DNA of 64,000 nucleotides from Gammaproteobacteria bacterium (lineage in GTDB: Bacteria > Pseudomonadota > Gammaproteobacteria > Magnimaribacterales > D2472): the NCBI GenBank assembly GCA_045564015.1, contig JBJLIB010000015.1, positions 1,913 through 65,912 of the forward strand, in the 5' to 3' direction. The notes beneath the pieces are model-generated. The model did no database searches. It was not told where the DNA came from and worked only from the letters and a program-made list of their open reading frames with translations. How positions within the stretch are numbered: position 1 is the first letter of the stretch; every line of letters starts with the position of its first letter. The position numbers and the translations under genes were made by a program. Shown here piece after piece: positions 1 through 64,000 of the stretch.

Positions 1-538
1 AGCTTCCATGAGGCACTTTAAACGCCTCCACAGATATATTTATATCTTTGAATACCAAACCCTCTTTTAAAAGATGGAAATTATATTTATAACCAATAGT
101 GTTTGATGGTTGAGTTCCATGGATTCTATAATTTATATCCTCTTCAAAAGCCTGCAGCGTTGATTCAGCCATTTTCTCTAAACCGATAGGACCAAATAAA
201 TTGATTCTTTTATTACGTCCCATAATCCAAGGCGTCAGCAATAAGTCAGCTAAACCAGCTGTATGATCTGAATGAATATGAGTTAAAAACGCATGCTCAA
301 TATTTTTGACTGTCATAGCTGTTATTTCACCTCCCCACTCTGGAGAAAAGCTAGCCATACTTCTTATTACACCGGAACCAAAATCAATTAAATATGCTTT
401 ATCATTTACTACTACCGCATAAGCAGATCCATTTCTTTGAGGATCAGGATTTGGAGTCCCAGAACCCAAGACGATTAATTTAGTTGATGCATTTAAGAGT
501 AATGGCAAAAGAATTAAAGGTAGAAATATTTTTTTCAT
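1..538 (-). CDS. MBL-fold metallo-hydrolase (RNase Z/ElaC-like), probably secreted. Truncated by the window edge.
   Basis: I translated the minus strand by hand from the ATG at 536-538. It gives MKKIFLPLILLPLLLNASTKLIVLGSGTPNPDPQRNGSAY...FLTHIHSDHTAGLADLL. The N-terminus is hydrophobic and signal-like. The HxHxDH metallo-beta-lactamase motif is present as HIHSDH. The frame stays open to position 1. Confidence 0.7.
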   Translation of the reverse strand, partial: MKKIFLPLILLPLLLNASTKLIVLGSGTPNPDPQRNGSAYAVVVNDKAYLIDFGSGVIRSMASFSPEWGGEITAMTVKNIEHAFLTHIHSDHTAGLADLLLTPWIMGRNKRINLFGPIGLEKMAESTLQAFEEDINYRIHGTQPSNTIGYKYNFHLLKEGLVFKDINISVEAFKVPHGS

Positions 539-595
539 GTTAGGTATAAGAGATTACAATTTATAATAAATCATACATTTAATTGTTTATAAACA

Positions 596-1066
596 ATGTC
601 AGAATATCAATCAATTCCAGAAATAATGCAATCAGCCGTCACCCCAGTTTTTCTATTAGCTGGAATAGGAGCATTATTAAACGTTATGACCGGAAGGCTT
701 GGCAGGATCATTGATAGGCTCAGATATCTTCAAAGTTTCCTTGTAAGAGTTTCTGAAGATGACAAAGAAATCATGTTGTTAAATCGTAAAAGGTTAATTT
801 TTCGCACAAGATTGATTAATACATCAATCTTTTTTTGCACTCTTAGTGGATTAATAGTCTGCATTGTCATTGGTACGTTATTTATTGGAGGTATTTATAA
901 AATTTCTTTAGGTGGGTTTATTTCTTTTGCATTTATACTTTGCATGCTCTGTTTAATACTGTCTTTAATTTCCTTAATCTGCGAAATTTTATTTGCAACT
1001 AGGACGTCTCGTAAAAATATACTTGCAACCGAATCAATAATTTCTAAATATCTTCATGACAAGTAA
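596..1066 (+). CDS. DUF2721-like integral membrane protein
   Basis: 156 aa. The N-terminal segment TPVFLLAGIGALLNVMTGRLGRIIDRLR plus two C-terminal TM helices resemble the DUF2721 family as I remember it. Confidence 0.5.
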   Translation: MSEYQSIPEIMQSAVTPVFLLAGIGALLNVMTGRLGRIIDRLRYLQSFLVRVSEDDKEIMLLNRKRLIFRTRLINTSIFFCTLSGLIVCIVIGTLFIGGIYKISLGGFISFAFILCMLCLILSLISLICEILFATRTSRKNILATESIISKYLHDK

Positions 1067-1568
1067 TCAAAAATCTTTACAAACATCTATTTCACTTATT
1101 GGAATGGCAGGGGCAGGGAAGTCCTCTTCAGGGCTTGCACTTGCATCAAAAACAGGCATGAATTTTGTTGATAGCGATCAATTAATTGAAACTCAATATA
1201 AAGAGAGTTTACAGAGCATCTTGGACAAATATGGCTATATAAAACTTAGAAAGATAGAGGAGTCAGTTTTATCCAATATAGATTTTCATCAAACAATTTT
1301 AGCAACAGGTGGTAGTGCGATATATAGCTCTAAAGCAATGGAGTATCTGCTAGCAAACTCATGCATAATTTTTTTAGATGTCCCACTTGAACTAATTCTT
1401 AAAAGGGTACCAAGTTTTTTAGACAGAGGTTTTGCAAAAGAGCCTTCTCAAAGCATTGAGGATGCCTTTGCTGAAAGACAAGAACTTTACAAGAAATATT
1501 CACACCACACCATTCAAAATACGCACGACATCAAGTCATGCGTGACCAAGATTATAAATTTATTTTAA
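1056..1568 (+). CDS. aroK: shikimate kinase
   Basis: Walker A is LIGMAGAGKSS, followed by FVDSDQLIE (the shikimate-binding DSD motif) and LATGGSAIY (the GGG-type motif). Size is 170 aa. It is colinear with E. coli AroK. Confidence 0.6.
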   Translation: MTSNQKSLQTSISLIGMAGAGKSSSGLALASKTGMNFVDSDQLIETQYKESLQSILDKYGYIKLRKIEESVLSNIDFHQTILATGGSAIYSSKAMEYLLANSCIIFLDVPLELILKRVPSFLDRGFAKEPSQSIEDAFAERQELYKKYSHHTIQNTHDIKSCVTKIINLF

Positions 1569-1618
1569 ATCTTAGTTAATAAATAAATTAACAGGATGAC
1601 TAATAAGCTTTATATCGA

Positions 1619-2440
1619 CTATCTTTTATTCTTGATAATATCAAGAACACCAATCACATTTCCATATTCACGTTTGTCTGCATACTGCCCTTCAATCCCA
1701 GCAAGTTTAAGCCGATTTTCAATGCCATGAATGACCATTGATAAATAAGATGTTCTTCCAAGGAAACATACTTTTTTTGAACCAATTAATAGCGCATTTA
1801 GATAGGCTACTGTTCCAATGACCTCACCAATCATATTGCATAATGCAGCCGAGGTATTTTCTATGGTATTTGCAGACGCAATTTTTGCCTGACCAAAATT
1901 TACTGCAGTTAAATCAGGCGACAAACCACCAATTTTGTTAACAACATCACCAATTAAAAAATCAAGCTTACCTTTTAACCCTTTTTCAGCAAAATGATTG
2001 ATCTCTCCTCCATCACCATTGTTAAATAATAGATGTCCAAGGCCTTCAAGCATGCCTCCACCCACAGCAATTCCACCAAGGTGGTAAAAATTATCGCCTT
2101 GGACATTAACACATGCTGTTCCTGTTCCAGCACTGACAACCAAGCAGGATTCATCTTTAAAACCATAAAGTGTCTTCGCACCTTGACCAATTGCATCTAT
2201 TTCATTAATTTTTTTAATTGGGATATTTTTAATTACATCGTCAAGATCAGATGATTTCCCTCCAGTAACACCAATAAGTTCAACCTGATTTAATGAAATA
2301 TCAATCCGTTTAAGAATATCTTCTATTTGATGTTTAGTAAGATCTTTAGTATCTGTTGGGAAGCTGTGAAAGTGAGTAGATTCTCTTTGAAATATAGCAA
2401 GGTCTGTATTTGAAATGCCAAAGTCAAAAGCAACATACAT
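1619..2440 (-). CDS. ASKHA-fold kinase, type II pantothenate kinase-like (fumble/CoaW type)
   Basis: Motifs are FDFGISNTDLA (phosphate-1), VSAGTGTAC, GGIAVGGGMLEGLGHLL, DLTAVNFG and GEVIGTVA. They lie colinear with S. aureus type II PanK (GIDAGGTL, VGTGTS, GGIGTGGGMIQGLGYLL, DLTAANFG). Confidence 0.55.
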   Translation of the reverse strand: MYVAFDFGISNTDLAIFQRESTHFHSFPTDTKDLTKHQIEDILKRIDISLNQVELIGVTGGKSSDLDDVIKNIPIKKINEIDAIGQGAKTLYGFKDESCLVVSAGTGTACVNVQGDNFYHLGGIAVGGGMLEGLGHLLFNNGDGGEINHFAEKGLKGKLDFLIGDVVNKIGGLSPDLTAVNFGQAKIASANTIENTSAALCNMIGEVIGTVAYLNALLIGSKKVCFLGRTSYLSMVIHGIENRLKLAGIEGQYADKREYGNVIGVLDIIKNKR

Positions 2441-2649
2441 TATTTTTTTGTATCACTATCTACTTCTTCAGCTTCACCTTCAATTATTTTTGAACCATCT
2501 TTGTTTTGACGGATGTTTGGCTTGCGTGAGCGGCCCCAGTTAATCCTGTCATCTCTATCCAGTTGTTTTTTTGAGGCCTTAATTTTTCCAAGGTTCATAA
2601 AAACAAACAATGAAAAAATAGCTAAAAGACTAAAAAAAATAGTATTCAT
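2440..2649 (-). CDS. small single-pass membrane protein, hypothetical
   Basis: 69 aa with an N-terminal TM helix and a charged tail. Its start abuts the stop of the upstream gene at 2649/2650. Its TAA stop overlaps the downstream ATG by 1 nt (TAATG at 2438-2442), which suggests translational coupling. Confidence 0.35.
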   Translation of the reverse strand: MNTIFFSLLAIFSLFVFMNLGKIKASKKQLDRDDRINWGRSRKPNIRQNKDGSKIIEGEAEEVDSDTKK

Positions 2650-3390
2650 TTATCTGCTTCTTAATTTCATCAAGAGACGTAGAATTTCTATATACAGCCA
2701 TACTAAAGTGACCATTAGCGAAAAAGCTCCATACCATTCCATATATTTTGGCAGACCGCGTTCAGCTCCATCTTCTATAAAATCGAAATCTAGGACAAGG
2801 TTAAGTGCGGCTATCCCAACAACAAATAATGAAAAACCGATTCCAAACAACCCATTGGAGTGAATAAAGCCTATGCTTGAGCCAAAGAAAGACATAATAA
2901 AGCTAACCAAGTACAAGAGAGCAATTCCCATGGTGGCTGAGAAAAGCATCAGTCTAAAATTTTCAGTTGGTTTAATTATGCCGCTTTTATAACAGAACAA
3001 TAAAGAAGCCAATATTCCAAAAGTTAATCCAATAGCTTGAATTCCAATTCCGGGATATTGCATTTCAGCCAGGACTGTAATTCCACCTAAGGCCACACCT
3101 TCAAAGGCAGCATAAAATGGAGCAGTTGAACCTGCTTTTGCTGGACTTCTAAATATAGTCACGAATGCCAGAATGGTTCCTATTATTAAACAAGGAATTG
3201 CTAATACTGGAATATTCCAGCCGACAAAGGCTCCACCAAAACACAAAGCAAGCAATACACCTGTTTTGTTTACAGCACCGTCAAGTGTCATCCGTTCGGC
3301 CTGAGGAAGATCTCTCGTATTTTCAAAATTTCTGACAAAGGCAGGGTTTCCAGACCTACCAAAAGTATTTAATGCAGAGTGTTTGGACAT
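2650..3390 (-). CDS. Bax inhibitor-1/YccA family membrane protein
   Basis: 246 aa with about 7 TM helices, a soluble N-terminus (SGNPAF) and a charged C-terminal tail. This architecture is typical of the BI-1/YccA family. Confidence 0.65.
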   Translation of the reverse strand: MSKHSALNTFGRSGNPAFVRNFENTRDLPQAERMTLDGAVNKTGVLLALCFGGAFVGWNIPVLAIPCLIIGTILAFVTIFRSPAKAGSTAPFYAAFEGVALGGITVLAEMQYPGIGIQAIGLTFGILASLLFCYKSGIIKPTENFRLMLFSATMGIALLYLVSFIMSFFGSSIGFIHSNGLFGIGFSLFVVGIAALNLVLDFDFIEDGAERGLPKYMEWYGAFSLMVTLVWLYIEILRLLMKLRSR

Positions 3391-3450
3391 TAATTTCTCC
3401 TTTAAAAAACTATTATGAATTATTTATGGTCTTTTAGACAAATTTAAAGA

Positions 3451-4491
3451 TCAAAGCTTATTTATCCAATTTTTAATCAGCTCAATCCCTGCTTCGTCCG
3501 CTAAGGCTCTTCCAGATTCTGGCATCATGATACCTGGATCCAATGAGTTCATTCTAAAAAGCATAATTGAATCATCTGCATGACCAGGAACTATGGAGTA
3601 TTTTAAATTACCGCTTGCTCGACCTGCTGCTACTGGTTTTTTATATATTCCTAGTTGTTCACGATTTACTTCAGTGTAATTTAAATACAATCCTGTGGTA
3701 TCTGCGGAGCCTCCAGGAATATGACAATGTCCACAATTAATATCAAGGTATGCTCTTGCTCGATCATCTAAAGATGCATTGACATCTGTGTAACTAGATA
3801 TCGAATTTGAATCAAGTTTGCTATCAATCCATCCCAATGCTGCCCAATAAAGCAATTGATTCATCTCTCCTGAGCGATAATCTAAGACTTTATTCATATT
3901 TCTTGCTTTTGGACCGATAGGAGTCATAACTTTATTAACTTGATGGCATTCTTTGCATTGATTCTGATTAGGGGCTCGATAGCGAACATCCACTATTTTA
4001 CCTGAAGAGTCTGTAAACGAAGTTGGTATTGTTGCCCCAGCAATAGCCCTCTTTGCATCAGTTTGCTCTGCATTCCATACATAGCTAGTCGCTTTCCAGC
4101 CTGCATTAGTATTAATTAAGAGGCGAGTTTCAAGCAATTGCTGTTCCATTGGACCATTGTTGTTTAGGTAGGCAAAGGTTTTGATTAGAGTAGATCCAAC
4201 AGGAAAAATAAAAACTTTATCTTTTACATAACCCAATTTCTGTCCCTCAGGAACATATACAAAACGCAGTTTATCTGTTTGATCAGAAAACAAAGGATTA
4301 ACAAGAGAGTATGGATGCACATCTTTAGATGGAATTTGATTTTGCATATCTTGAAAAAAACCAAATTCAGAAAGAAATCTTGGAGCTTTAGAAAAATCTT
4401 CTAAATTGAATGCATTGGAGGTGTAGGCTTGGGATGAAAAGCAAATCAAGAAAATAACTAGCAGGTAAGATTTTTTAAAAGGTTTCATCAA
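3451..4491 (-). CDS. exported dihaem c-type cytochrome (SO_2930/HNE_0200-like family)
   Basis: Signal peptide is MMKPFKKSYLLVIFLICFSSQAYT. There are two CxxCH haem-binding motifs, CKECH and CGHCH. The start overlaps the upstream beta-helix gene by 17 nt. Confidence 0.7.
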   Translation of the reverse strand: MMKPFKKSYLLVIFLICFSSQAYTSNAFNLEDFSKAPRFLSEFGFFQDMQNQIPSKDVHPYSLVNPLFSDQTDKLRFVYVPEGQKLGYVKDKVFIFPVGSTLIKTFAYLNNNGPMEQQLLETRLLINTNAGWKATSYVWNAEQTDAKRAIAGATIPTSFTDSSGKIVDVRYRAPNQNQCKECHQVNKVMTPIGPKARNMNKVLDYRSGEMNQLLYWAALGWIDSKLDSNSISSYTDVNASLDDRARAYLDINCGHCHIPGGSADTTGLYLNYTEVNREQLGIYKKPVAAGRASGNLKYSIVPGHADDSIMLFRMNSLDPGIMMPESGRALADEAGIELIKNWINKL

Positions 4492-5713
4492 ACTCTACTC
4501 TTGCTAGCGGTGAGATTTCTCCATTAAATTCATTAATGTTTAAGGTTGCAGGATCTAAAAACGGAACCATATATCCGATGGGTTTGATTGCTAGAAAGGT
4601 AGCATCTCCATTGTTAGTAATAATCATTTTTTCATCTTCAGGTTGACCAAAAATTATCTGAGATATTGGCACTAAGCCATCCCAAAATATATCAGGCATA
4701 TTCCCATCTGAAAGCTCAAAAAGTATTTCGGCTAATTCTCCCTTGCTCGTATCAGGGTTATATCCAGTTGGACCGAATTTATTTCCATGGATCTGAATAG
4801 ATTTCGGGTGAGGGTAGTAAGTCACATCGTCTGTTTCATTTCCGTAAGTAACAACTGCAATATTTACCGTGTCGTTGTCCCCAATTTCATTATTAAAGAT
4901 CTCCACATTTGAATTTGCTTGAATAATAACTCCTGTACCTCTTGGCACCTCGCCTACGATATTTCCTTCCGGAGCAAAGTTATCAGTATTATTTCCAACG
5001 GAGCGGTTATTAAATACTCTTATGTGATGCCCGCCTTGTTGGGGCAATCCCGGTAGATCAAAAACCAAAATCCCGCCAGTATTATTAGTTGCAACATTGT
5101 TAAAAACATCTGCATAGTATGAGTTTTCTATTTCAATACCGGCAACATTGAATTCCGCTCTACTATTCCTAACAATTATATTTTTTGATTGTCCAACATA
5201 GATCCCAGCATCTGATGCACCAATTGCAATACAACCATCAATCAATACATTAGTTGATTCAACTGGATATAGACCATAGGCTCCATTTTCTGAGTTTGGC
5301 CCGTTCGTCCATTCAGTTTTTACTCTTAAAAACTTGATGTTGGTTACACCCTTAACTTTAATGGCATCTCCTTTAGCATTTTGGATAGAAAAATCCTGGA
5401 GGGTTACGTTATCTGAAGTAACGCTGAGTCCTTGGGCGCCACTTTGTTGATCGGCAAAGTTAAGAATGGTTTGATTCATTCCCTCTCCCTCAATTTGAAC
5501 TCCTTCAACATCGAGCGATAAAGAGTCTTGCAGATTAAATATGCCTGAGGTGAGCCGAATCACATCACCGGGTTCGGCTAATATTAGAGCCTCTTGAATA
5601 TCCTCATATGCATTTTCAGATGGCTGAATAATTTGTACAGCAGGGTATATCGTGCTACTAAAAAAGAGTAACCCAACTATAATCTGATTAGATAGCTTGA
5701 GGAATTTCACCAA
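4475..5713 (-). CDS. exported parallel beta-helix repeat protein (NosD-like, TIGR03805-like)
   Basis: TTG start followed by a signal-like N-terminus (KFLKLSNQIIVGLLFFSSTIYPA). About 22-residue G/N/I-rich repeats recur (NVLIDGCIAIGASDAGIYVGQS, NIIVRNSRAEFNVAGIEIENS, ADVFNNVATNNTGGILVF...). It overlaps the upstream gene by 26 nt. Confidence 0.7.
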   Translation of the reverse strand: MVKFLKLSNQIIVGLLFFSSTIYPAVQIIQPSENAYEDIQEALILAEPGDVIRLTSGIFNLQDSLSLDVEGVQIEGEGMNQTILNFADQQSGAQGLSVTSDNVTLQDFSIQNAKGDAIKVKGVTNIKFLRVKTEWTNGPNSENGAYGLYPVESTNVLIDGCIAIGASDAGIYVGQSKNIIVRNSRAEFNVAGIEIENSYYADVFNNVATNNTGGILVFDLPGLPQQGGHHIRVFNNRSVGNNTDNFAPEGNIVGEVPRGTGVIIQANSNVEIFNNEIGDNDTVNIAVVTYGNETDDVTYYPHPKSIQIHGNKFGPTGYNPDTSKGELAEILFELSDGNMPDIFWDGLVPISQIIFGQPEDEKMIITNNGDATFLAIKPIGYMVPFLDPATLNINEFNGEISPLARVEFDETF

Positions 5714-6809
5714 ATTTTTCTAGAGGTTTTTCAAGCTCATCCCAATTACATTCGAAATCATCTGGAGCATTTTCATACTCAAGTAAACCCAATGCCTCAA
5801 ATTTTGGCCTAACTTTATCTGTTAAAAGTCCTATTCTTGCAAGGTTAGGCATAATTCTTGAGAACAAGAAATTTCTAAAAGTCGCATTAGCTGACGTTGA
5901 TAAGGCAAATTCCCTGGCTTCATCCTCAGACATTTTCAGGTATTTTTGCATCGCCGTTGTGTTGATAAGTCTCTCTCTAGAGATGACACAAGCTTCATAA
6001 GCAAACTCTGCCCTATCCTCAATCTCCTCAGGGCTTAAAGTTTTTATAAAGTCCTCAAGATAATTAATTCCAAAGGTGACATGTCTGGCTTCGTCGCGAA
6101 TTACGTAATGTAGCAGTTGAGTCAAAAGAGGATCCTTAGATAGTCCCTTTAACATTTGAAAGGCAGCTAGAGCCAAGCCCTCTATAACAATTTGCATGCC
6201 AATAAATTTGAGGTCCCATCTTTCATCTGTAAGAATTTTGTCAAGCAATAATTTTAGATTTTTATTGATAGGATAATGCATGCCTATTTTTTCCTGAAGA
6301 TACCTATTGAAAACTTCAACATGTCTTGCCTCATCAAATGTTTGTGATGCTGCATATAACTTTGCATTGTAAGTAGGTGCACATGAGGTTAGTTGAGATG
6401 CAACAAGGAGTGCCCCTTGTTCTCCATGAAGGAACTGACTTAATAATTCAGCAGTATCATGGCGGTCAAACTCAATCTTTTCTTCATCGCTTAAATTTTC
6501 GTATGCTTCAAGAGTTTCATGGGGCAAGTCTTCATCTGCCTGAATAAGTCTTTCGTTGGCTGGATGGGTATAATCCCAATTTAGGTCTATAGAACCATTC
6601 CAGTTTAACTCCTTACCAAGCTCATAAAGCTTTTTAATTCTATTGTCAGCAACAGTGTAATCCCAGTTATATGCACCAGTTAATGGTGTATTGAATATTT
6701 CAACAACATCTTCAACTTGAGCAGGAGTGAGATTTAATTCGTTTTCAACCTCTAAAGTCTTAAACTTCAAGATATCATTTGGCGGCCCGTCTGTTTTGGT
6801 AATTTTCAT
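5688..6809 (-). CDS. ferritin-like di-iron carboxylate oxygenase (AurF-like superfamily)
   Basis: The E...ExxH...E...ExxH ligand pattern is present as HGEQGAL, FDEARHVEVF, IVIEGLAL and IRDEARHVTFG. There is no signal peptide. A GAGGGAGAA Shine-Dalgarno precedes the ATG. Confidence 0.65.
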   Translation of the reverse strand: MKITKTDGPPNDILKFKTLEVENELNLTPAQVEDVVEIFNTPLTGAYNWDYTVADNRIKKLYELGKELNWNGSIDLNWDYTHPANERLIQADEDLPHETLEAYENLSDEEKIEFDRHDTAELLSQFLHGEQGALLVASQLTSCAPTYNAKLYAASQTFDEARHVEVFNRYLQEKIGMHYPINKNLKLLLDKILTDERWDLKFIGMQIVIEGLALAAFQMLKGLSKDPLLTQLLHYVIRDEARHVTFGINYLEDFIKTLSPEEIEDRAEFAYEACVISRERLINTTAMQKYLKMSEDEAREFALSTSANATFRNFLFSRIMPNLARIGLLTDKVRPKFEALGLLEYENAPDDFECNWDELEKPLEKFGEIPQAI

Positions 6810-6831
6810 TTTCTCCCTCGTAAATTCCTAA

Positions 6832-6850
6832 ATGTTTACAGTGTAAACAT
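6832..6850. promoter_or_regulatory. perfect 9-1-9 palindromic operator ATGTTTACAGTGTAAACAT (candidate TetR-family binding site)
   Basis: Read directly from the sequence. Its reverse complement is identical apart from the central base. It lies 23-41 nt upstream of the di-iron oxygenase ATG and 5 nt downstream of a TATAAT. Confidence 0.6.
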
Positions 6851-6855
6851 AGTCA

Positions 6856-6884
6856 ATTATATTCTTTTTTTCAATCATTGAAAA
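6856..6884 (-). promoter_or_regulatory. candidate sigma70 promoter of the di-iron/beta-helix/cytochrome operon
   Basis: The minus strand reads TTTTCA-N17-TATAAT, with -35 at 6879-6884 and -10 at 6856-6861. The -35 lies inside the last codons of cobT. Confidence 0.4.
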
Positions 6885-8640
6885 GTTCGGTCAGTTTATC
6901 TAGCAATGCTTCTGCTAATTCTTCCGCTCTGTTGATAGTTATTGATTTATCATAATATTTTGTCACATCGTGCCCAATACCAATTGCAAGGAGTTCTACA
7001 TTGCTTTGAGTTTCAATCGTATGAATAATTTGACGTAAGTGGTTGTCTAGAAAATTACTATGATTTGTAGATAGAGTACTGTCATCTACAGGCGCTCCGT
7101 CTGAGATAACTATTAATATCTTTCTTTCTTCATTCCGTTTACTTAATCTTTGATGCGCCCAAGCTAAGGCTTCGCCATCAACATTTTCTTTTAATAATCC
7201 CTCTCGTAACATTATGCCAAAACTTTTCCTGGCCTTTCTAAAATTATCTTCCGCTGATTTAAAAATAATGTGCCGTAAATCATTTAAACGACCAGGATTA
7301 GACGGGCTGCCTTGATTAACCCAGGCTTTCCTTGATTCGCCACCTTTCCAATGTTTTGTAGTAAATCCGAGCAGTTCTGTTTTCACGTAACACCTTTCCA
7401 GAGTACTTCCAATTATATCCCCACAAATTGCTGCCAAGGTCATAGATCGACCTCGCATTGAACCTGAGCTATCTATTAATAACGAAACAACAGTATCCTT
7501 GAACTTACTCTCGCTTTCTTGCTTAAAGCTTAGTGGATCTCCTGGTCGAGTAATGACTCTATGTAGTTGAGCTGTATCTAATAAACCTTCTTCAAGATTA
7601 TAATTCCAACTTCTGTTTTGTTGGGCCTGCAGCAATCTTTGTAACCTATTGGCTAATTTGCCAATTGTTGTTTGATGCGGGGCAATCAGTTGATCAAGTT
7701 GCAATCTTAGTCTTTGAGATTCTTCAGGAGTTGCTAATTCAATTGCATTGATAACCTCATCAAACTGAGAAGTAAATATTTTATAATCTTCATAATTAGT
7801 TTGATCTAAGTCTTCATTATAATTTCTTGTTAAATCTATTTCTTCATCAATTGACATGGAATCAATTGAAGCTTGAACTTCTTCTAGTATTTCACTTTCT
7901 TCATCAGCAGTCCCCTCTGCCTGCGATTCAATTGTTTGCTCTTCAACATCCTCTTCAGTTTGAGGTTGTTGTGATTCAGAATCTTGAGCATTCTCTTGAG
8001 ATGGTTGATCCTCAGAGGACTCTTGATCACCTTGAGTTGCTGGTTCATGCATGAGATCTAAATCCTTCATAAGATCAAGAGCGATGGATTGAAAATCTTC
8101 TTGAGAGTTCTGAGCCTCAATTAATTCCTTACCAACCTTATTAATGTTTATGGGGATAGAGGAAAGAAAAGCATTTACAGTATTCTTGCTATCCTCAGCT
8201 AAGCTTTCTCCATTAAGCTCTTTCAACCAAAGGTTTGCAGCCAATGGATTGAATGGAGGAACTTTATTGTCAATTCCCTTTTTTGCTTGAGTATTGAGAT
8301 AAGCATTTAAATTAATTTTGGCGCCAGGAAATTTTTTTCCTCCAATCATTTCAACTCTACAAAGCTCAAGTTCAGTAAAAAAATCTCTTGCAACCTTTGG
8401 CATTTTCAAAGAAGCATGCTCTTTGTGGAAGGCCTGCCAAAATGCTTGAAAATCTCCTTCCCCTCTCCATGCATCAACTTGAGAGGATGATCTTGGAGGG
8501 TATTGCAAAGAAATTTGTAATGAAGAGGGAGGGCGACTAGAAGCCTGCGATGTACTTTCTAGGTCTGAGTTTTTAGATACCGCCCTAGCAGTTGAGAGAG
8601 CAGCTTGCTTAAATTCTTCTCGATTCTTAACCCAACTCAT
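6871..8640 (-). CDS. cobT: CobT-like vWA-domain protein (aerobic cobaltochelatase subunit T family)
   Basis: 589 aa. It has a long central acidic low-complexity linker ([30 protein letters not shown]...). The C-terminal vWA domain carries the MIDAS motif [11 protein letters not shown]. It is paired with cobS immediately upstream. Confidence 0.8.
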
Positions 8641-8643
8641 TTA

Positions 8644-9627
8644 CTACGATTCAGGATTATGACTTTCCAAAAGATCTTCTCCAAAACATCTTTGAAAATA
8701 CTCAGCCACAATTGGTCTCTCAGCTTCATCGCACTTATTAAGAAATGTTAATCTAAATGAGTGCTTAATATCATTAAAAATAATATAGTTTTGTGCCCAT
8801 GTTATTACTGTTCTTGGCGACATTAATGTAGATATATCCTCATTGATAAAGCCTTGTCTGGTTAAATCTGCGAGCTGTATCATACTCTTGATGAGGGCTT
8901 TATCTTTAGCAGATTTGAGTTGAGGAACTTTTCCATGCACTACATTTAGCTCATGAGATCGCTCTAAATAATTTAATGTTGAAAGAATATGCCAACGGTC
9001 CATTTGGCCTTGATTAATTTGCTGAGTTCCATGATAAAGACCGGTTACATCACCCATGCCAACAGTATTAGTAGTAGCAAATAGTCTGAAACTATTATGC
9101 GGAGTTATCACTTGATTTTGATCAAGCAAGGTTAATTTCCCATCTACTTCAAGTATCCTTTGAATCACAAACATTACATCTGGTCTTCCCGCATCATATT
9201 CGTCAAAAACTATCGCAACAGGATTTTGAATTGACCAAGGCAGAATACCTTCTTTAAATTCTGTGATTTGCTTTTCATCTTTTAATACAATTGCATCTTT
9301 GCCAAGTAAATCAATTCTACTTATGTGACTATCAAGATTTATTCTTACGCATGGCCAATTGAGTCTGGCAGCAACCTGCTCAATGTGGGTTGATTTACCA
9401 GTTCCATGGTATCCCTGAATCATTACCCTTCTATCATGCTCAAAACCAGCTAAAATTGCTAAAGTAGTATCTTTATCAAAGATGTAAGTTTCGTCAATGT
9501 CTGGAACCCATTGTGTTTTTTCCTTAAATCCTTTGACCTCAAGATCAGAATCAATCCCAAATATTTTTTTTACATTGAATTTTTGATCAGGCCTTTCAGG
9601 CAGGTTTATTCTTTCAGAATCTATCAT
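8644..9627 (-). CDS. cobS: CobS-like AAA+ ATPase (aerobic cobaltochelatase subunit S family)
   Basis: 327 aa. Walker A is GYHGTGKST and Walker B is IVFDEYD. The sequence is colinear with CobS as I recall it (RLNWPCVRINLDSH..., RLFATTNT). Confidence 0.85.
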   Translation of the reverse strand: MIDSERINLPERPDQKFNVKKIFGIDSDLEVKGFKEKTQWVPDIDETYIFDKDTTLAILAGFEHDRRVMIQGYHGTGKSTHIEQVAARLNWPCVRINLDSHISRIDLLGKDAIVLKDEKQITEFKEGILPWSIQNPVAIVFDEYDAGRPDVMFVIQRILEVDGKLTLLDQNQVITPHNSFRLFATTNTVGMGDVTGLYHGTQQINQGQMDRWHILSTLNYLERSHELNVVHGKVPQLKSAKDKALIKSMIQLADLTRQGFINEDISTLMSPRTVITWAQNYIIFNDIKHSFRLTFLNKCDEAERPIVAEYFQRCFGEDLLESHNPES

Positions 9628-9738
9628 TACAAGTACTTTTTATTTATTGGATGACTATGCTAACTTTTGAGAGCATAAAGTTCTAGTTTTTAATGAATCA
9701 ATGTAAGATAAATTTAATTAAATATATTCCCATCATTC

Positions 9739-10599
9739 ATGAGCAAAGCGCTAAAAAATACTTTAGATTTATTTAACCTCACAAGAATAGATAGAGACTT
9801 ATATTCTTGGACCGGTCAAAGTGTTGGCTTTCAAAGAATTTTTGGCGGTCAAATCATGGCTCAATGCTTAATCGCAGGTTATCAAACTGTAGAAAAGGGA
9901 AGAATGGTGCATTCTTTTCATTCCTATTTTCTTAGGCCCGGAGACTTCAAACAAAATATTATATTTGAGGTAGACCGTATAAGAGATGGTAAAAGTTTTA
10001 CGACAAGAAGAGTAAACGCGATACAAAATGGAGAAGCAATTTTTAGTTGCTCTATCTCATTTCAAAAAAGAGAAAAGGGTTTGAATCATCAAATTAAAAT
10101 GCCAAAAATTCAAGGACCAGAAAAACTAAAAAGCGATCTAGAACTAAGAAAAGACCTTAAATCTAAAATACCCAAAGATTATTTACCAATGTGGCTTAGA
10201 GAGAGGGAGATTGAGACCAGGCAAGTTGAACCTGTTGATTTATTAAACGCAGTAAAACTTCCTCCCTACAGAAGTACGTGGATGAAACCTACTGGAAAAT
10301 TGCCAGCTGATGAAAGGATCCATCAAGCATTGCTATTGTATGTTTCTGATATGGGTCTGCTTGGAGCCGCAGTAAATCCTCATGAAGTTAATTTTATGTC
10401 TAAGAAATTCCAGAGCGCAAGCTTAGATCACGTGATGTGGTTTCATGGAAAAGTTAATTTTAATAATTGGATTTTGCATCATATGCACAGTCCGATATCT
10501 CAAAATGCCAGAGGGTTCTCTCGAGGATCAATTTATACAAAATCAGGAAAACTAGTGGCATCAACCGCCCAAGAAGGACTCATGCGTATTTGGGATTAG
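9739..10599 (+). CDS. tesB: acyl-CoA thioesterase II
   Basis: 286 aa with a double hot-dog layout. IFGGQIMAQCL matches the TesB FGGQVVGQAL region. The C-terminal SLDHVMWFH motif is present. Confidence 0.8.
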   Translation: MSKALKNTLDLFNLTRIDRDLYSWTGQSVGFQRIFGGQIMAQCLIAGYQTVEKGRMVHSFHSYFLRPGDFKQNIIFEVDRIRDGKSFTTRRVNAIQNGEAIFSCSISFQKREKGLNHQIKMPKIQGPEKLKSDLELRKDLKSKIPKDYLPMWLREREIETRQVEPVDLLNAVKLPPYRSTWMKPTGKLPADERIHQALLLYVSDMGLLGAAVNPHEVNFMSKKFQSASLDHVMWFHGKVNFNNWILHHMHSPISQNARGFSRGSIYTKSGKLVASTAQEGLMRIWD

Positions 10600-10680
10600 C
10601 AAAATAATTTGAAGGCCTGGGCTCTAGCTAAATTTATTAAAAGCTTGGTATAGTTATTTTTTAATTACTAATTACAAAAT

Positions 10681-11100
10681 ATGTTGTCACTTTTCAAAAA
10701 AAAACTATTTTCTGATATCTCTGGAAGTGCGGAAGATATGCCGCCACATGTATCTGCTGTCTTATGCTTAATGATTGAGATTGCCAGAATGGATGGAAAA
10801 ATAGATGAAAATGAAATAGATGAAATTAAAAACTTTTATTTAGATTTATATCCTAATGGTAATTTTACAGAAGCATTTGAAGAGCTTAAAGATTGGACAA
10901 GCCACAAAGAATCTTTTAATCCTTTTATCAATATTATTAACAGCAATTGCACAAAACGAATGAAAATAGAGATCCTCTCGAATATTTGGGATGTAATTTT
11001 ATCTGATGAAAATGTTGATCAATATGAAAATTCACTGTTTATGCAAATAGGCGAAATGTTGTTGATCAGCAAAGAAGAACTTTTAAATATTCAGAGTTAA
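10681..11100 (+). CDS. TerB-like (DjlA N-terminal-like) domain protein
   Basis: 139 aa, helical. The IARMDGKIDENEIDEI pattern and the later DENVDQYENSLF are typical of TerB-family repeats. Confidence 0.5.
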   Translation: MLSLFKKKLFSDISGSAEDMPPHVSAVLCLMIEIARMDGKIDENEIDEIKNFYLDLYPNGNFTEAFEELKDWTSHKESFNPFINIINSNCTKRMKIEILSNIWDVILSDENVDQYENSLFMQIGEMLLISKEELLNIQS

Positions 11101-12015
11101 TTAAGAGTTAAGCCGCAAGTGCTCTAATAGATCCTCTTCAAATTTAAGTAGAATCTCTGGTTCAATCAGATGCCTCATTTCATCAATGATCTTTAGTTTG
11201 CTATTTGGTATTAATTTATGCATTTTGTAAGCATTCTTTACTTTGATCATAGGATCTTTTTTGCCATGAATAATTAAAGTTTGTGCTTTAATCTTTTGTA
11301 TTTTTTTTAGCCTATCCTTTGAAGCCAAGATCGATAAAAGTTGCCTTGCGTAACCAGAACCATCCTGGGAGCGATTTAAGTTTTTAATTGTTTCTTCTCT
11401 AAATTCTGGAGTATCAACAACTCTACCCTCCATACCTATAAGGGTGACAATTTTAATTTCTCTGATAATTACTTCCTCAACTGATGCATTTGGATTTTTA
11501 GATCTTTCCATCATAAGATCTCTGACTGGTTTTGATGGAGCATTGATTGGGCTCGGTGTTGAAGCTGTTGAGGCAATCAAGGTAAATGATTTAACTTTTT
11601 GAGGATATTGAGCACTGATGATCTGAGCAATCATCCCACCCATTGAAGTGCCAAGAACGTGTGCTTGCTCAATGTGTAGTGTTTCAAGCAGCTTGATTCC
11701 ATCATCTGCCATATCGTCAATGTTATATTCTGCCTGAATAGGCAATCTCAAAAAATATTTAATGTAATCCAACAAAAAAGATGGAGTTCCTGAAAATCTT
11801 GAAGACAAACCAACATCTCTATTATCGTAAGTAATGGGTCTAAAATTATGTGACTGTAAAAAATGAATTAGATGGGGAGGCCAATGAACTAGTTGAGCTC
11901 CTAAACCATGTACCATGAGAATTGGATCACCATTTACAGGACCGTAGTCTCGGTAAAATATCTTGACTCCATTGTTCTCAGCAAAACCCTCCGAATATTG
12001 ATCAGCTACATTCAT
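11101..12015 (-). CDS. alpha/beta-fold hydrolase
   Basis: The HGLG oxyanion region is MVHGLGAQ. The nucleophile elbow is GTSMGGMIA (GxSxG). A C-terminal HLIEPE region follows. Confidence 0.7.
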   Translation of the reverse strand: MNVADQYSEGFAENNGVKIFYRDYGPVNGDPILMVHGLGAQLVHWPPHLIHFLQSHNFRPITYDNRDVGLSSRFSGTPSFLLDYIKYFLRLPIQAEYNIDDMADDGIKLLETLHIEQAHVLGTSMGGMIAQIISAQYPQKVKSFTLIASTASTPSPINAPSKPVRDLMMERSKNPNASVEEVIIREIKIVTLIGMEGRVVDTPEFREETIKNLNRSQDGSGYARQLLSILASKDRLKKIQKIKAQTLIIHGKKDPMIKVKNAYKMHKLIPNSKLKIIDEMRHLIEPEILLKFEEDLLEHLRLNS

Positions 12016-26549: not shown

Positions 26550-27881
26550 TTAGCCGAGTAAATTATTTATTTCAATAAGATTTTCAGGACTTAGTGTACC
26601 TGCGGCCAAATGAAGACGAAGCGTCGTAATCAAATAGTCATATTTTGCATTAGAGAGATTTCTTTCCGCACTATAAAGATTTTTTTCGGCTTGCAATAGA
26701 TCGACAATATTTCTCGTGCCTACTTCATATCCAACCTTTGTTGCTTCGAGTGCACTCGATGCAGAAACAACAGCTTGCTTCTGAGCGCGAAGATTTGCAA
26801 CCAATGTCACTACATTTGAATACTGGCTTCTTACATCTTGAATAACACTTCTCTCAGCAAATAATGCATCTTCTGATGATTTATTAGATTCTGCATAGGC
26901 TTGCTTAGTTCTTGAAATTACAGCACCTCCCTGAAATATCGGCATAGATAGCTGAAGGCTATAGGTATCCCGCTTTGTTTCATCTGGAACGGTAATATTA
27001 AAGGCGCCCCCAGTATTTAATCCATCATAAGCGTATTGATTAGTTTCTGATTCAGTTTGTGCCCCGACAATATCAACCTTTGGTAAATGATTTGAAGCAA
27101 CACTCCTTGCATTATTTTTTGATGCAAGCTTTCTAAGGTTTGCAGCCTGCAATCTAAAATTATTTTCAACAGCTTTCCTTGCCCATTCTTCTTTAGAAGC
27201 AGGAATAGGATTTGATACATTTAAATCGTTTACAAGCCCATCAAGCGAAATAATTTCTCTGCCAACTAATGCATTCAAAGATTCTTTTGCGGTATAGACC
27301 TCTCCTTCAATTCTTGTTCTTGAAGCAATACTTAGATCAAAAGCTAATTGGGCTTCTTGCACTTCGGTAACAGCAGAAAGACCAACTTCATATCTTTGAC
27401 GAATTTGATCGAGTTGTTTCTTAATTGCTTTTTCCTCTGATCGAGCTGCACTTAAGTTATCAATAGCTCGTAAAACATTAAAATAAAGCTCAGCAGTTCT
27501 TACGATTAAACCTTGTTGAGAATATGCAAAATCAGCCTCTGCTGCATCTGTTAGAAATTTAGATTGTCTATATTTAAACCAAGTATCTAATCGAAGTAAG
27601 GGCTGAGTAAGACGCGCTGAAGTGCTGAAATTATTGTACTGATTTTGGAGATTTCCATTTTGATAATATTCATTCCAATTTGTTTGAGCGCTAATTGTTA
27701 CGCTTGGAAGAAGGGCTGCTCGTCCTTGAACTTTAATTTCTTTGCCTGATAAATATGAAAATTCTGCTGATCTATATTGCGGGTCATTTTCCAATGCATC
27801 ATTGTAAATATCTAGCAAGCTATCTCCTGCAGAATTAATACTAAGGGCAAGCAGCGATATAACTAGAATGTTTTTATTCAT
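26550..27881 (-). CDS. tolC: TolC-family outer-membrane efflux channel
   Basis: 443 aa with a signal peptide. The N-terminal SLLDIYNDALENDPQYRSAEF parallels the E. coli TolC N-terminus. It shows the two-fold internal repeat of OEP helices. Confidence 0.8.
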   Translation of the reverse strand: MNKNILVISLLALSINSAGDSLLDIYNDALENDPQYRSAEFSYLSGKEIKVQGRAALLPSVTISAQTNWNEYYQNGNLQNQYNNFSTSARLTQPLLRLDTWFKYRQSKFLTDAAEADFAYSQQGLIVRTAELYFNVLRAIDNLSAARSEEKAIKKQLDQIRQRYEVGLSAVTEVQEAQLAFDLSIASRTRIEGEVYTAKESLNALVGREIISLDGLVNDLNVSNPIPASKEEWARKAVENNFRLQAANLRKLASKNNARSVASNHLPKVDIVGAQTESETNQYAYDGLNTGGAFNITVPDETKRDTYSLQLSMPIFQGGAVISRTKQAYAESNKSSEDALFAERSVIQDVRSQYSNVVTLVANLRAQKQAVVSASSALEATKVGYEVGTRNIVDLLQAEKNLYSAERNLSNAKYDYLITTLRLHLAAGTLSPENLIEINNLLG

Positions 27882-27894
27882 ATTTAGATTTTTA

Positions 27895-27913
27895 ATGTTT
27901 ACAGTGCATACAT
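27895..27913. promoter_or_regulatory. operator-like site ATGTTTACAGTGCATACAT immediately upstream of tolC
   Basis: 17 of 19 positions match the perfect palindrome at 6832-6850. It lies 14-32 nt upstream of the tolC ATG at 27881. Confidence 0.5.
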
Positions 27914-62802: not shown

Positions 62803-63207
62803 ATGAGATATTTATTTATTTTTTTACTTTCATGTTCATTGCATGCAATAGAATTATCACCAAGCACTGACAATGCTTCTGTGTATTTCATTTCTCCAAA
62901 TAATGGAGAATCTATCTCAGGAAAAATTAGAGTACGATTTGGTTTAGAAAACTTTGGTATTGCTCCAGCTGGAACTCAGATCATGCATACAGGGCATCAT
63001 CATTTAATTATCGATACCGATCTACCCCCACTCAACCTTCCAATACCAGCTGATAAAAATCATGTCCATTTTGGGAAGGGGCAAACAGAAGTTGAGATTG
63101 AGTTAAGCCCTGGAACTCACACACTTCAATTACTATTGGGTGATTTTCGCCATATTCCCCATAGTCCTCCAATCATTTCAAAGAGAATCACGGTTCAGGT
63201 AGATTAG
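62803..63207 (+). CDS. DUF4399-like secreted His-rich protein
   Basis: 134 aa with a signal peptide. The HTGHHHLIID motif and a later FGKGQTE..L..G.H.L match the DUF4399 family as I remember it. Its ATG directly follows the flavin reductase stop. Confidence 0.55.
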   Translation: MRYLFIFLLSCSLHAIELSPSTDNASVYFISPNNGESISGKIRVRFGLENFGIAPAGTQIMHTGHHHLIIDTDLPPLNLPIPADKNHVHFGKGQTEVEIELSPGTHTLQLLLGDFRHIPHSPPIISKRITVQVD

Positions 63208-63800
63208 AGTTCTAAGGAGTCAACAAGAAAAGATCTAAAATCTTTTTTCACTATGGACATAGCATCAGCCGCATTTGAGCCTATATCCGGATCTATTTTC
63301 ATATCTAATAAACCTACCAAGCCATGCATCATTGCCCAGAATTTTATACATTTTTTACCTAGGTCATCTTCAGATATTCCTGGAAATAGCTCTGTTAGAA
63401 TTTGTACTAGCTCATCAAATGCTCCTTGAGCAGCATTCAATAGCTCAGGAAATTCAACTTTATCAATGATTGGGCTATGCATTAGATCGTAAGTCTTTCT
63501 TTTCTCTAATCCAAATTCGAGATAGGCAAGCCCCATTTCAAGAAACCTATCTTTTGCAGATTTACTATTTTCTTTGTTAATTGCCAATCTCATTTTATCT
63601 GTTAAGTCTTCAAAACCTCTCCTTGATACTTCTGCAAGAAGACTTTCTTTTGTTTTAAAGTGCCTGTAGGGGGCTGTTTGCGATACATTAGCTTCTTTAG
63701 CAATAGATCTTAAGCTCATGTGATCATGACCATTAGCTTCACATATTATGCAAGCGCTAGAGATTAGCTCCTCTTTTAAATTGCCATGATGATATTTCAT
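63204..63800 (-). CDS. TetR/AcrR-family transcriptional regulator
   Basis: The HTH is MSLRSIAKEANVSQTAPYRHFKTKESLL. I place the start at the ATG at 63800 (MKYHHGNLKEEL, a typical family N-terminus). The ORF-track start at 63827 would bury an operator-like palindrome in the coding sequence. Confidence 0.85.
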   Translation of the reverse strand: MKYHHGNLKEELISSACIICEANGHDHMSLRSIAKEANVSQTAPYRHFKTKESLLAEVSRRGFEDLTDKMRLAINKENSKSAKDRFLEMGLAYLEFGLEKRKTYDLMHSPIIDKVEFPELLNAAQGAFDELVQILTELFPGISEDDLGKKCIKFWAMMHGLVGLLDMKIDPDIGSNAADAMSIVKKDFRSFLVDSLEL

Positions 63801-63808
63801 AATTTTTA

Positions 63809-63858
63809 ATGTTGACAGTGAATACATTAAATATATACTATGTTTACGCTGCTAACAT
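63809..63858. promoter_or_regulatory. two tandem operator-like sites (ATGTTGACAGTGAATACAT at 63809-63827; ATGTTTACGCTGCTAACAT at 63840-63858) in the TetR divergent spacer
   Basis: 16/19 and 15/19 positions are identical to the perfect palindrome at 6832-6850. Both keep the ATGT...ACAT ends at the same 19-bp span. They lie between the TetR gene and the divergent + strand gene. Confidence 0.5.
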
Positions 63859-63882: not shown

Positions 63883-64000
63883 ATGAAGAAATTTTTGAAC
63901 CTGTCACTCTTTTTACTTTTAGCATTTGATTTATCATCGAATGCATCTTTAGAAATTACAACGATTGAAATTCAAGACTCTTACAATACTATCCAGCGTT
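63883..64000 (+). CDS. secreted protein, 5' fragment. Possibly an efflux-pump periplasmic adaptor.
   Basis: ATG at 63883 gives MKKFLNLSLFLLLAFDLSSNASLEITTIEIQDSYNTIQR..., a signal peptide followed by a beta-strand-like segment. It is divergent from a TetR gene. The functional guess comes from context only. Confidence 0.3.
   Translation, partial: MKKFLNLSLFLLLAFDLSSNASLEITTIEIQDSYNTIQR

Follow-up and report, generated by a model that had tools for sequence, protein, structure and literature searches.

Introduction

Exported beta-helix proteins of the TIGR03805 family and dihaem cytochromes c of the TIGR03806 family are known as a gene pair of the SO2930/HNE_0200 type, represented by SO_2931/SO_2930 of S. 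oneidensis. In the literature we found no functional study of TIGR03805 or TIGR03806, and for SO_2930/SO_2931 only catalogue entries as putative outer-membrane cytochromes. Here, we analyse such a pair in a stretch of 64,000 nucleotides of contig JBJLIB010000015.1 (hereafter the window), whose best protein matches are, by their source names, from the SAR86 cluster of marine Gammaproteobacteria. The pair (g2 and g3) follows a gene for a predicted cytoplasmic di-iron oxygenase (g1) on the minus strand. A preliminary description of the window took this trio to be a three-gene module acting across both compartments under a dedicated repressor-type operator. On balance, we lean towards another reading, namely that the trio is a lineage-specific composite operon of two separable units, which was recruited into an AcrR-type efflux/detoxification regulon, with a weak common thread that hints at aldehyde or lipid chemistry.

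Three groups of described systems serve as points of comparison. Like the usual TIGR03805/TIGR03806 pair, g2 and g3 score above the cutoffs of the two families, are both exported and stand in the same g2-then-g3 order, but here they lack a promoter of their own and follow the gene of a di-iron oxygenase, with a putative TetR operator in front, and the usual neighbours of the pair (TonB-dependent receptor, AraC, aldehyde dehydrogenase, HupE-like) are absent at the window locus. The second group is the AcrR/TetR-controlled RND regulons of the acrR-acrAB plus tolC type. As in these, a TetR gene in the window diverges from a membrane-fusion protein (MFP)-RND operon, with palindromic operators in the shared promoter region and at an unlinked tolC-like gene; the window differs in that the oxygenase operon g1-g2-g3 is apparently included, and in the cupin and TauD-like genes found behind the pump. 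Lastly, the best sequence-profile and fold matches of g1 are R2lox and aldehyde-deformylating oxygenase (ADO), which have in common with it a four-helix-bundle di-metal carboxylate core with E/ExxH/E/ExxH ligands. R2lox and ADO bind fatty-acid-like ligands, as the titles of PDB entries also indicate. No characterised orthologue of g1, g2 or g3 turned up in the literature or the PDB, in keeping with the earlier statement that the function is uncharacterised.

Gene layout, synteny and distribution

The three open reading frames (ORFs) are all on the minus strand: g1 at 5688-6809 (373 amino acids, ATG start), g2 at 4475-5713 (411-412 amino acids) and g3 at 3451-4491 (345-346 amino acids). The longest ORFs of g2 and g3 both start with TTG (5713 and 4491, respectively), and the gene calls of close relatives imply GTG at 5710 for g2 and ATG at 4488 for g3. 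With the TTG starts, g1/g2 overlap by 26 nt and g2/g3 by 17 nt; the alternative GTG and ATG starts reduce these overlaps to 23 and 14 nt, respectively. The trio and the overlaps of 26 and 17 nt given in the preliminary description were thus recovered at the same coordinates. Overlaps occur, however, in 21 of the 42 same-strand neighbour pairs of the window when the longest ORFs are used, and the window is 96% coding at a low GC content of ~36%. The genome is extremely compact and gene overlap is its norm. Because overlapping frames are the rule in the window, the overlaps within the trio carry little functional weight.

Direct homologue searches with g1 and g3 of the window returned only SAR86 sequences of at least 80% identity; distant relatives of g1 and of the pair were reached via a 50%-cluster search and locus scans seeded with distant relatives. 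SAR86 relatives whose g1 is 80-95% identical retain the order CobS-CobT-g1-g2-g3-BaxI (BaxI being a Bax-inhibitor-1-like membrane protein). The preliminary description had proposed to look for synteny in other genomes, and in the literal sense SAR86 genomes do keep the trio. But the entire neighbourhood is kept along with it, and the conservation of the trio is therefore inherited synteny and not independent evidence. The three genes also diverge at different rates: between the window and a distant SAR86 genome (L001), identity is 86% for g1, 69% for g2 and 56% for g3.

Two surveys addressed the association outside this group, one a genome scan seeded with distant g1 relatives and the other a metagenome scan seeded with g3 relatives, the best 80 loci being kept in each. 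The g1-family loci come from Binatia, Myxococcota, Acidimicrobiia, Streptomyces and others, and in none of the 80 did we find a g2 or g3 homologue within 8 kb (there were two insignificant beta-helix matches only). Likewise, none of the 80 pair loci, with a GC content ranging from 37 to 72%, had a g1 relative within ~8 kb. Within the pair the association is tight. In 76 of the 80 loci g2 is directly upstream of g3, and in the remaining four there are at most ~200 bases upstream of g3, where g2 could not be seen. The metagenome scan yielded at least 568 confirmed relatives among 600 candidates. The g2-g3 pair is a self-contained, widespread cassette.

Closer to the window, too, g1 orthologues with 58-67% identity occur without the pair. 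The arrangements are alr-g1-pyrG (L093 and L094, 58% g1 identity), MFS-g1-queH (L096, from a sponge-associated gammaproteobacterium, 58%), tesB/SDR-g1-merC (L097, 59%), g1 with a pilin-like gene and a prepilin peptidase nearby (L098, 62%), CobS-CobT-g1-PanK (L099, 64%), AraC-g1-VWA, the last gene being of the VWA_CoxE type (L100, 66%), and g1-BaxI (L264, 67%). Of these distant g1 loci, which stem from SAR86 and related marine Gammaproteobacteria, only the first carries the source name SAR86. In L099 and L264 the pair is missing from the same slot that it fills in the window. Taken together, these comparisons across genomes speak against the trio being a conserved three-component system. The three-gene, two-compartment module is a local juxtaposition, a result that guards against over-reading operon overlaps in SAR86-like genomes.

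When the region 1619-3390 of the window was compared with L001, L007, L099 and L264, the interval between g1 and a type II pantothenate kinase gene proved to vary in content among SAR86 lineages. The window has the pair, BaxI and a 69-amino-acid ORF there, and L099 has nothing; relative to the window, L001 has an additional 742-amino-acid DUF305 protein and L007 an additional M1 peptidase. L264 is a 3-kb contig of uncertain provenance (cell or phage), with Lys-rich upstream ORFs of unclear origin, and the first residues of its 5'-terminal ORF (...GDVYKRQ, in 3-70) resemble translated sequencing-adaptor sequence. The AraC regulators beside g1 (in L100) and beside the pair (in L114) are only 30% identical and give no evidence of a regulon common to both.

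Promoter, operator and putative regulon

The best minus-strand promoter-like match in 2400-9800 lies upstream of g1 at 6856-6884 (TTTTCA-17-TATAAT, 10/12 positions), with the -35 box at 6884-6879, a 17-nt spacer and the -10 box at 6861-6856. The -35 box reaches into the end of cobT, and the TATAAT box is kept in relatives with 95% g1 identity. From the g1 start to the last third of g3, the promoter/terminator scan gave no promoter-like or terminator-like match. One promoter with no such match inside the genes fits the single transcript claimed earlier, and we infer that g1, g2 and g3 are co-transcribed.

A perfect 19-bp palindrome, ATGTTTACAGTGTAAACAT (that is, ATGTTTACA-G-TGTAAACAT), is located at 6832-6850. 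From 5 nt past the -10 box it extends over the presumed transcription start, leaving 22 nt to the ATG of g1. Three relatives whose g1 is 95% identical have it unchanged at 19/19 positions, whereas the intergenic bases around it differ at several positions; in L001, the more distant SAR86 genome, another inverted repeat stands in its place. At up to three mismatches, the window contains four copies of the motif where 0.08 would be expected, and all four are in promoter regions, those of the trio and of the tolC-like, tetR and MFP genes. The second copy, with two mismatches, is found at 27895-27913, 14 nt upstream of a gene for a TolC-like outer-membrane efflux protein (26550-27881, minus strand, 443 amino acids; Pfam OEP, E 4.5e-55), a putative member of the regulon. 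The third and fourth copies (63809-63827 and 63840-63858, three mismatches each) lie in a divergent TetR/efflux promoter region. On one side of it is a TetR/AcrR-family repressor gene (63204-63827, minus strand; TetR_N and TetR_C_33), whose product is the candidate operator binder, and on the other the 5' end of a gene for an RND membrane-fusion protein (63884-64000, plus strand), which is the first gene of the efflux operon and is cut at the window end. Public gene calls for the TetR gene use the longer form with ATG at 63827. That start lies inside the operator copy at 63809-63827, which makes ATG 63794 (MKYHHGNLKEE...) more plausible and probably the true start.

The locus thus has the features of a TetR/AcrR-type efflux regulon, with a repressor gene divergent from an efflux operon and palindromes at the repressor's own and at target promoters, and the best reading of these predicted binding sites is an AcrR-type regulon made up of the efflux genes, tolC and the g1-g2-g3 operon, with the TetR protein as the putative repressor at the palindrome. 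An operator is indeed present at the trio, as claimed in the preliminary description; it is not dedicated to it, since copies are also found at the tolC-like gene and the TetR/RND locus. On contigs encoding an identical TetR protein (L101-L103), the divergent operon consists of MFP, RND pump, Cupin_2 and TauD-like genes, the genes for the Cupin_2 protein and the TauD-like 2-oxoglutarate/Fe(II) oxygenase being located behind the RND pump (4489-9945). The putative regulon would pair efflux with three different oxygenase-type enzymes. Such a link in an abundant uncultured ocean bacterium is possibly worth more than the original module claim. In other phyla, the gene found most often upstream of g1-family members is, by a wide margin, a TetR gene (19 of 74).

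The composite-operon reading that we favour would work as follows. In one SAR86 subclade, the g2-g3 cassette lies between g1 and the BaxI-like gene downstream and, because it has no promoter of its own, would be read from the g1 promoter. This promoter would be blocked by the TetR/AcrR-type repressor bound to the 19-bp palindrome, and the same operator would act at the repressor's own gene, the divergent RND efflux operon and the tolC-like gene. From this common operator, the trio would therefore be induced along with efflux when the repressor ligand appears, which is probably a hydrophobic or toxic compound.

Several points weigh against this reading or parts of it. The efflux regulon is drawn from four sequence matches in one 64-kb window. 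The surveys, limited to the best 80 loci, could miss rarer co-occurrences of g1 and the pair, and ORF calling in the high-GC loci was crude. In this lineage, the three genes are connected by a common regulated promoter, which makes a functional link between them possible. The AlphaFold2 (AF2) model of g3, built from sequences of 80-99% identity, had a pLDDT of 29.7 and was unusable, which leaves the role proposed below for the pair without structural support.

The di-iron protein g1

The product of g1 matches the Pfam family AurF (PF11583) with 44.5 bits against a cutoff of 29.6 (E 1.4e-11). Its metal ligands are E130, E160-x2-H163, E210 and E240-x2-H243; in an alignment of 39 sequences with identities down to 25%, five of them are invariant and E130 is conserved in at least 90%. 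There is no N-terminal hydrophobic segment (maximum Kyte-Doolittle 12-mer 0.91). Alignment and hydropathy thus bear out the full di-iron ligand set and the missing export signal described for g1 earlier. At E <=0.001, g1 has relatives in 2079 clusters of 50% identity, which makes the family a large one. The AF2 model (pLDDT 76) is a ferritin-like helical bundle with a disordered N-terminus, and its best PDB folds are class Ie RNR R2, R2lox, ADO and a VlmB-like protein; for ADO, the TM-score normalised by target length reaches 0.72. With the family profile, R2lox (E 1.6e-11, metal-site helices only) and ADO (E 4e-10) were found in the PDB.

These matches do not make g1 an R2lox or an ADO. All curated equivalog models stay far below their cutoffs for g1: the ADO model TIGR04059 gives 17 bits against 222.65, the R2lox model (NF006200 and related) gives a partial match of 33.7 bits against 194, and the TM-scores to g1 are only 0.4-0.7. 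Compared with both, g1 has an extra conserved N-terminal region of ~100 amino acids (W49, Y51, LYE, W70, W78). AurF/CmlI N-oxygenases, in turn, have an additional His ligand four residues before the glutamate of the second ExxH. We rejected g1 as an enzyme of this type, since a His is not conserved at that position; its H235 stands one residue too far from E240 (five residues before it), hence out of register, and relatives have D, T, R or other residues instead. With the AurF/CmlI arylamine N-oxygenases g1 has the Pfam model PF11583 in common, and there is no biosynthetic-cluster context at g1. Within the ferritin-like superfamily, g1 falls into a large branch that is uncharacterised and has R2lox and ADO as its closest relations. 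From its sequence we conclude that g1 is a stand-alone, strongly conserved, predicted cytoplasmic di-iron (possibly Mn/Fe) O2-activating enzyme that is often TetR-regulated. The most likely substrate is a hydrophobic, lipid-like or aldehyde compound. The literature held nothing on SAR86 di-iron proteins.

Some members of the g1 family are fusion proteins (P0161, P0222, P0160, P0156, P0148, P0236, P0256). One architecture of about 1400 amino acids combines AMP-binding, PP-binding and NAD_binding_4 (thioester-reductase) domains with the di-iron domain, an aldehyde-generating arrangement. Others join the di-iron domain to an ABC1 (UbiB-like) kinase or to an FNR-like FAD/NAD-binding domain. The fusions offer leads on the substrate class and the electron supply. 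The downstream neighbours of g1-family genes in other phyla are heterogeneous.

Directly upstream of g1, at 6871-9627, are the genes for CobT and CobS, with scores just below the equivalog cutoffs. NorQ/NorD and CbbQ/CbbO act on clients, and by likeness to these, g1 might belong with the AAA+ ATPase CobS and the VWA protein CobT, which would insert or repair its metal cofactor. SAR86 lineages keep the gene order CobS-CobT-g1 whether or not they have the pair, in L100 the gene after g1 is of the VWA_CoxE type, and on a T4-like phage contig (L091, 5491-6678) a CobS homologue (25% identity, E 1.8e-17, phrog_249) is encoded two genes upstream of a g1 homologue. However, g1 is served by a separate promoter and operator behind cobT, a CobS/CobT match near g1 was seen in none of 80 viral loci and none of the 80 loci from other phyla, and other SAR86-like lineages place g1 beside alr/pyrG or merC. 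We consider this relation of chaperone and client very improbable, at best a weak possibility.

The g2-g3 pair

The family assignments of the preliminary description were correct: like g1 for AurF, g2 and g3 are above the cutoffs of their profile models. The match of g2, a right-handed parallel beta-helix protein, to TIGR03805 spans the whole model (1-314 of 314) and scores 408 bits, the cutoff being 141.5 (E 2e-122); there are further matches to Pfam Beta_helix and NosD. That of g3 to TIGR03806 (the SO2930 family) scores 354.7 bits against 313.3 (E 4e-106). In both proteins the N-terminus is rich in Lys and leads into a hydrophobic core, with maximum Kyte-Doolittle 12-mers of 2.35 (g2) and 2.48 (g3), and these signal-peptide-like N-termini agree with the signal peptides claimed for them. 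PDB searches with the single sequences of g2 and g3 gave only chance matches (HIV protease, phosphoglycerate mutase).

In g2, conservation in at least 93% of 64 sequences is confined to Asp, Glu, Asn, Tyr, Lys and Trp residues, the majority of which are also invariant across an alignment of 25 sequences; examples are D116, K119, W135, Y146, Y149, D168, Y172, E194, E196 and N197. The only PDB match of the g2 profile was a weak one to the N-terminal part of a PL6 alginate lyase (E 1e-4). Judged from the alignments, the conserved acidic surface of g2 resembles that of carbohydrate-active beta-helix enzymes. Neither alignment (64 or 25 sequences) contains a conserved His, Cys or Met. A copper site in g2 was rejected on this ground, and the copper binding suggested earlier for the beta-helix protein is unlikely.

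Two recurrent contexts of the pair emerged from the survey. High-GC loci have AraC (Arabinose_bd type), g2, g3, a TonB-dependent receptor and an aldehyde dehydrogenase; marine loci have a PPIase, HupE_UreJ_2, g2, g3 and a 4HBT thioesterase. By clustering, an aldehyde dehydrogenase adjoins the pair in 7 of the 80 loci. On a Novosphingobium plasmid, the pair lies between TonB-dependent receptors, with an aldehyde dehydrogenase present and no g1. The most economical and most likely role of the pair is that of a periplasmic redox/processing unit acting on a compound taken up through the outer membrane. Where it occurs with AraC and a cytoplasmic aldehyde dehydrogenase, it resembles, by analogy and in gene context, the periplasmic aldehyde-forming oxidase of E. 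coli tynA-feaB-feaR. Together, the cassette structure, the acidic g2 surface free of conserved His, Cys and Met, and the recurrent partners narrow the search for the function of the pair.

The same contexts could be read in terms of metals, with the pair as a metal-acquisition or metallocofactor module in which a NosD-like periplasmic scaffold and an electron donor would work with outer-membrane receptors and HupE/UreJ-type permeases. HupE_UreJ_2 membrane proteins are encoded directly upstream of the pair in 7-8 marine loci, TonB-dependent receptors adjoin it in many loci, CobN is upstream of it in one, and CobS and CobT are just upstream of the operon in the window. A weak similarity of g2 to NosD also fits, but the NosD model TIGR04247 gives 32.9 bits against a cutoff of 300, and the gene list of window positions 1-12000 contains no nos genes. 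Further, g2 has no conserved His, Cys or Met that could hold Cu, Ni or Co, and an Rfam scan of the whole 64 kb gave no RNA family at the gathering threshold, that is, no cobalamin or other riboswitch. The AraC and aldehyde-dehydrogenase neighbours point instead to the catabolism of an organic substrate. A metal-handling role is thus unlikely and a weaker alternative than a redox/processing unit.

The aldehyde dehydrogenase beside the pair also raises the prospect of a true pathway across the envelope in this lineage. In it, g2 and g3 would make an aldehyde or lipid-like product from an imported compound and g1 would convert this product in the cytoplasm, taking the place of the aldehyde dehydrogenase found beside the pair in soil bacteria. 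Such a pathway would entail a metabolic hand-over between the periplasmic pair and g1. The common promoter and operator, the overlapping frames, the aldehyde dehydrogenase in 7 of 80 pair loci and on the Novosphingobium plasmid, the g1-family fusions to carboxylate-reductase-like A-T-R modules that make aldehydes, and the fold of g1, nearest to ADO and R2lox, are all consistent with it, as is the retention of the trio in SAR86 genomes whose g3 has diverged by 44%. Yet this conservation coincides with that of the whole neighbourhood, co-occurrence outside the subclade is 0 of 160 loci, closely related lineages carry g1 at this locus but lack the pair, g2 and g3 evolve much faster than g1, and on T4-like phage contigs g1 has no pair within the 6-kb flanks. 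We therefore regard such a pathway as rather unlikely.

The dihaem cytochrome g3

The two CxxCH haem sites described earlier for g3 were found at 178 (CKECH) and 252 (CGHCH), with haem attachment predicted at both, and a domain of ~170 amino acids precedes the first. Both motifs are invariant across 26 sequences, as are H254 and M322-P323, and a set of 80 has them conserved throughout (80 of 80). H254 lies inside the second CxxCH motif, and M322-P323 is single. With one conserved Met (M322) and the invariant extra H254, one of the haems may be five-coordinate or unusually ligated. The g3 profile gave only weak matches to class I cytochromes c in the PDB.

An unusual haem would allow g3 to be a catalytic dihaem enzyme instead of a plain carrier of electrons. 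It might make or use a protein-derived cofactor on g2, at one of the invariant residues W135, Y146, Y149, Y172 and K119, and g2 and g3 would then be a new type of periplasmic beta-helix dehydrogenase turning an imported compound into an aldehyde. In the SAR86 lineage, the ADO-like g1 would take this aldehyde instead of an aldehyde dehydrogenase, and efflux would be co-induced. A dihaem c-type protein with a partner protein recalls MauG/MADH and MbnH/MbnP, by analogy only; no sequence or fold evidence likens g3 to MauG, and no redox cofactor is known for g2. We give this proposal little chance of being right, and the composite operon of two separable units remains the reading that we prefer.

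A g3-like domain (26% identity, 89% coverage) is also part of a 2157-amino-acid 'starch-binding protein' on a Pseudoalteromonas plasmid (L089, 6610-13083), which indicates that the TIGR03806 fold is also a module of giant exported proteins. The gene that follows on this plasmid encodes a DUF1552 protein.

Homologues of g1 on phage contigs

Full-length homologues of g1 with 53-57% identity are present on at least 136 viral contigs of IMG/VR (loci L184-L263 are IMG/VR contigs; L091 and L092 have the homologue at 7001-8065). In GenBank phage genomes there was no g1 homologue at E <=1e-10, PHROGs had no family for g1, and a BFVD search with g1 gave only weak matches to R2-like folds. The phage homologue looks like an undescribed auxiliary metabolic gene. 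An uncharacterised, strongly conserved di-iron oxygenase family carried by many uncultivated T4-like marine phages may, like the regulon, be worth more than the module claim. The viral contigs examined are genuine T4-like myophages, with Gp23, UvsY, PhoH, ThyX and clamp-loader genes nearby, and in 10 contigs an AOX/PTOX gene is located directly upstream of the g1 homologue.

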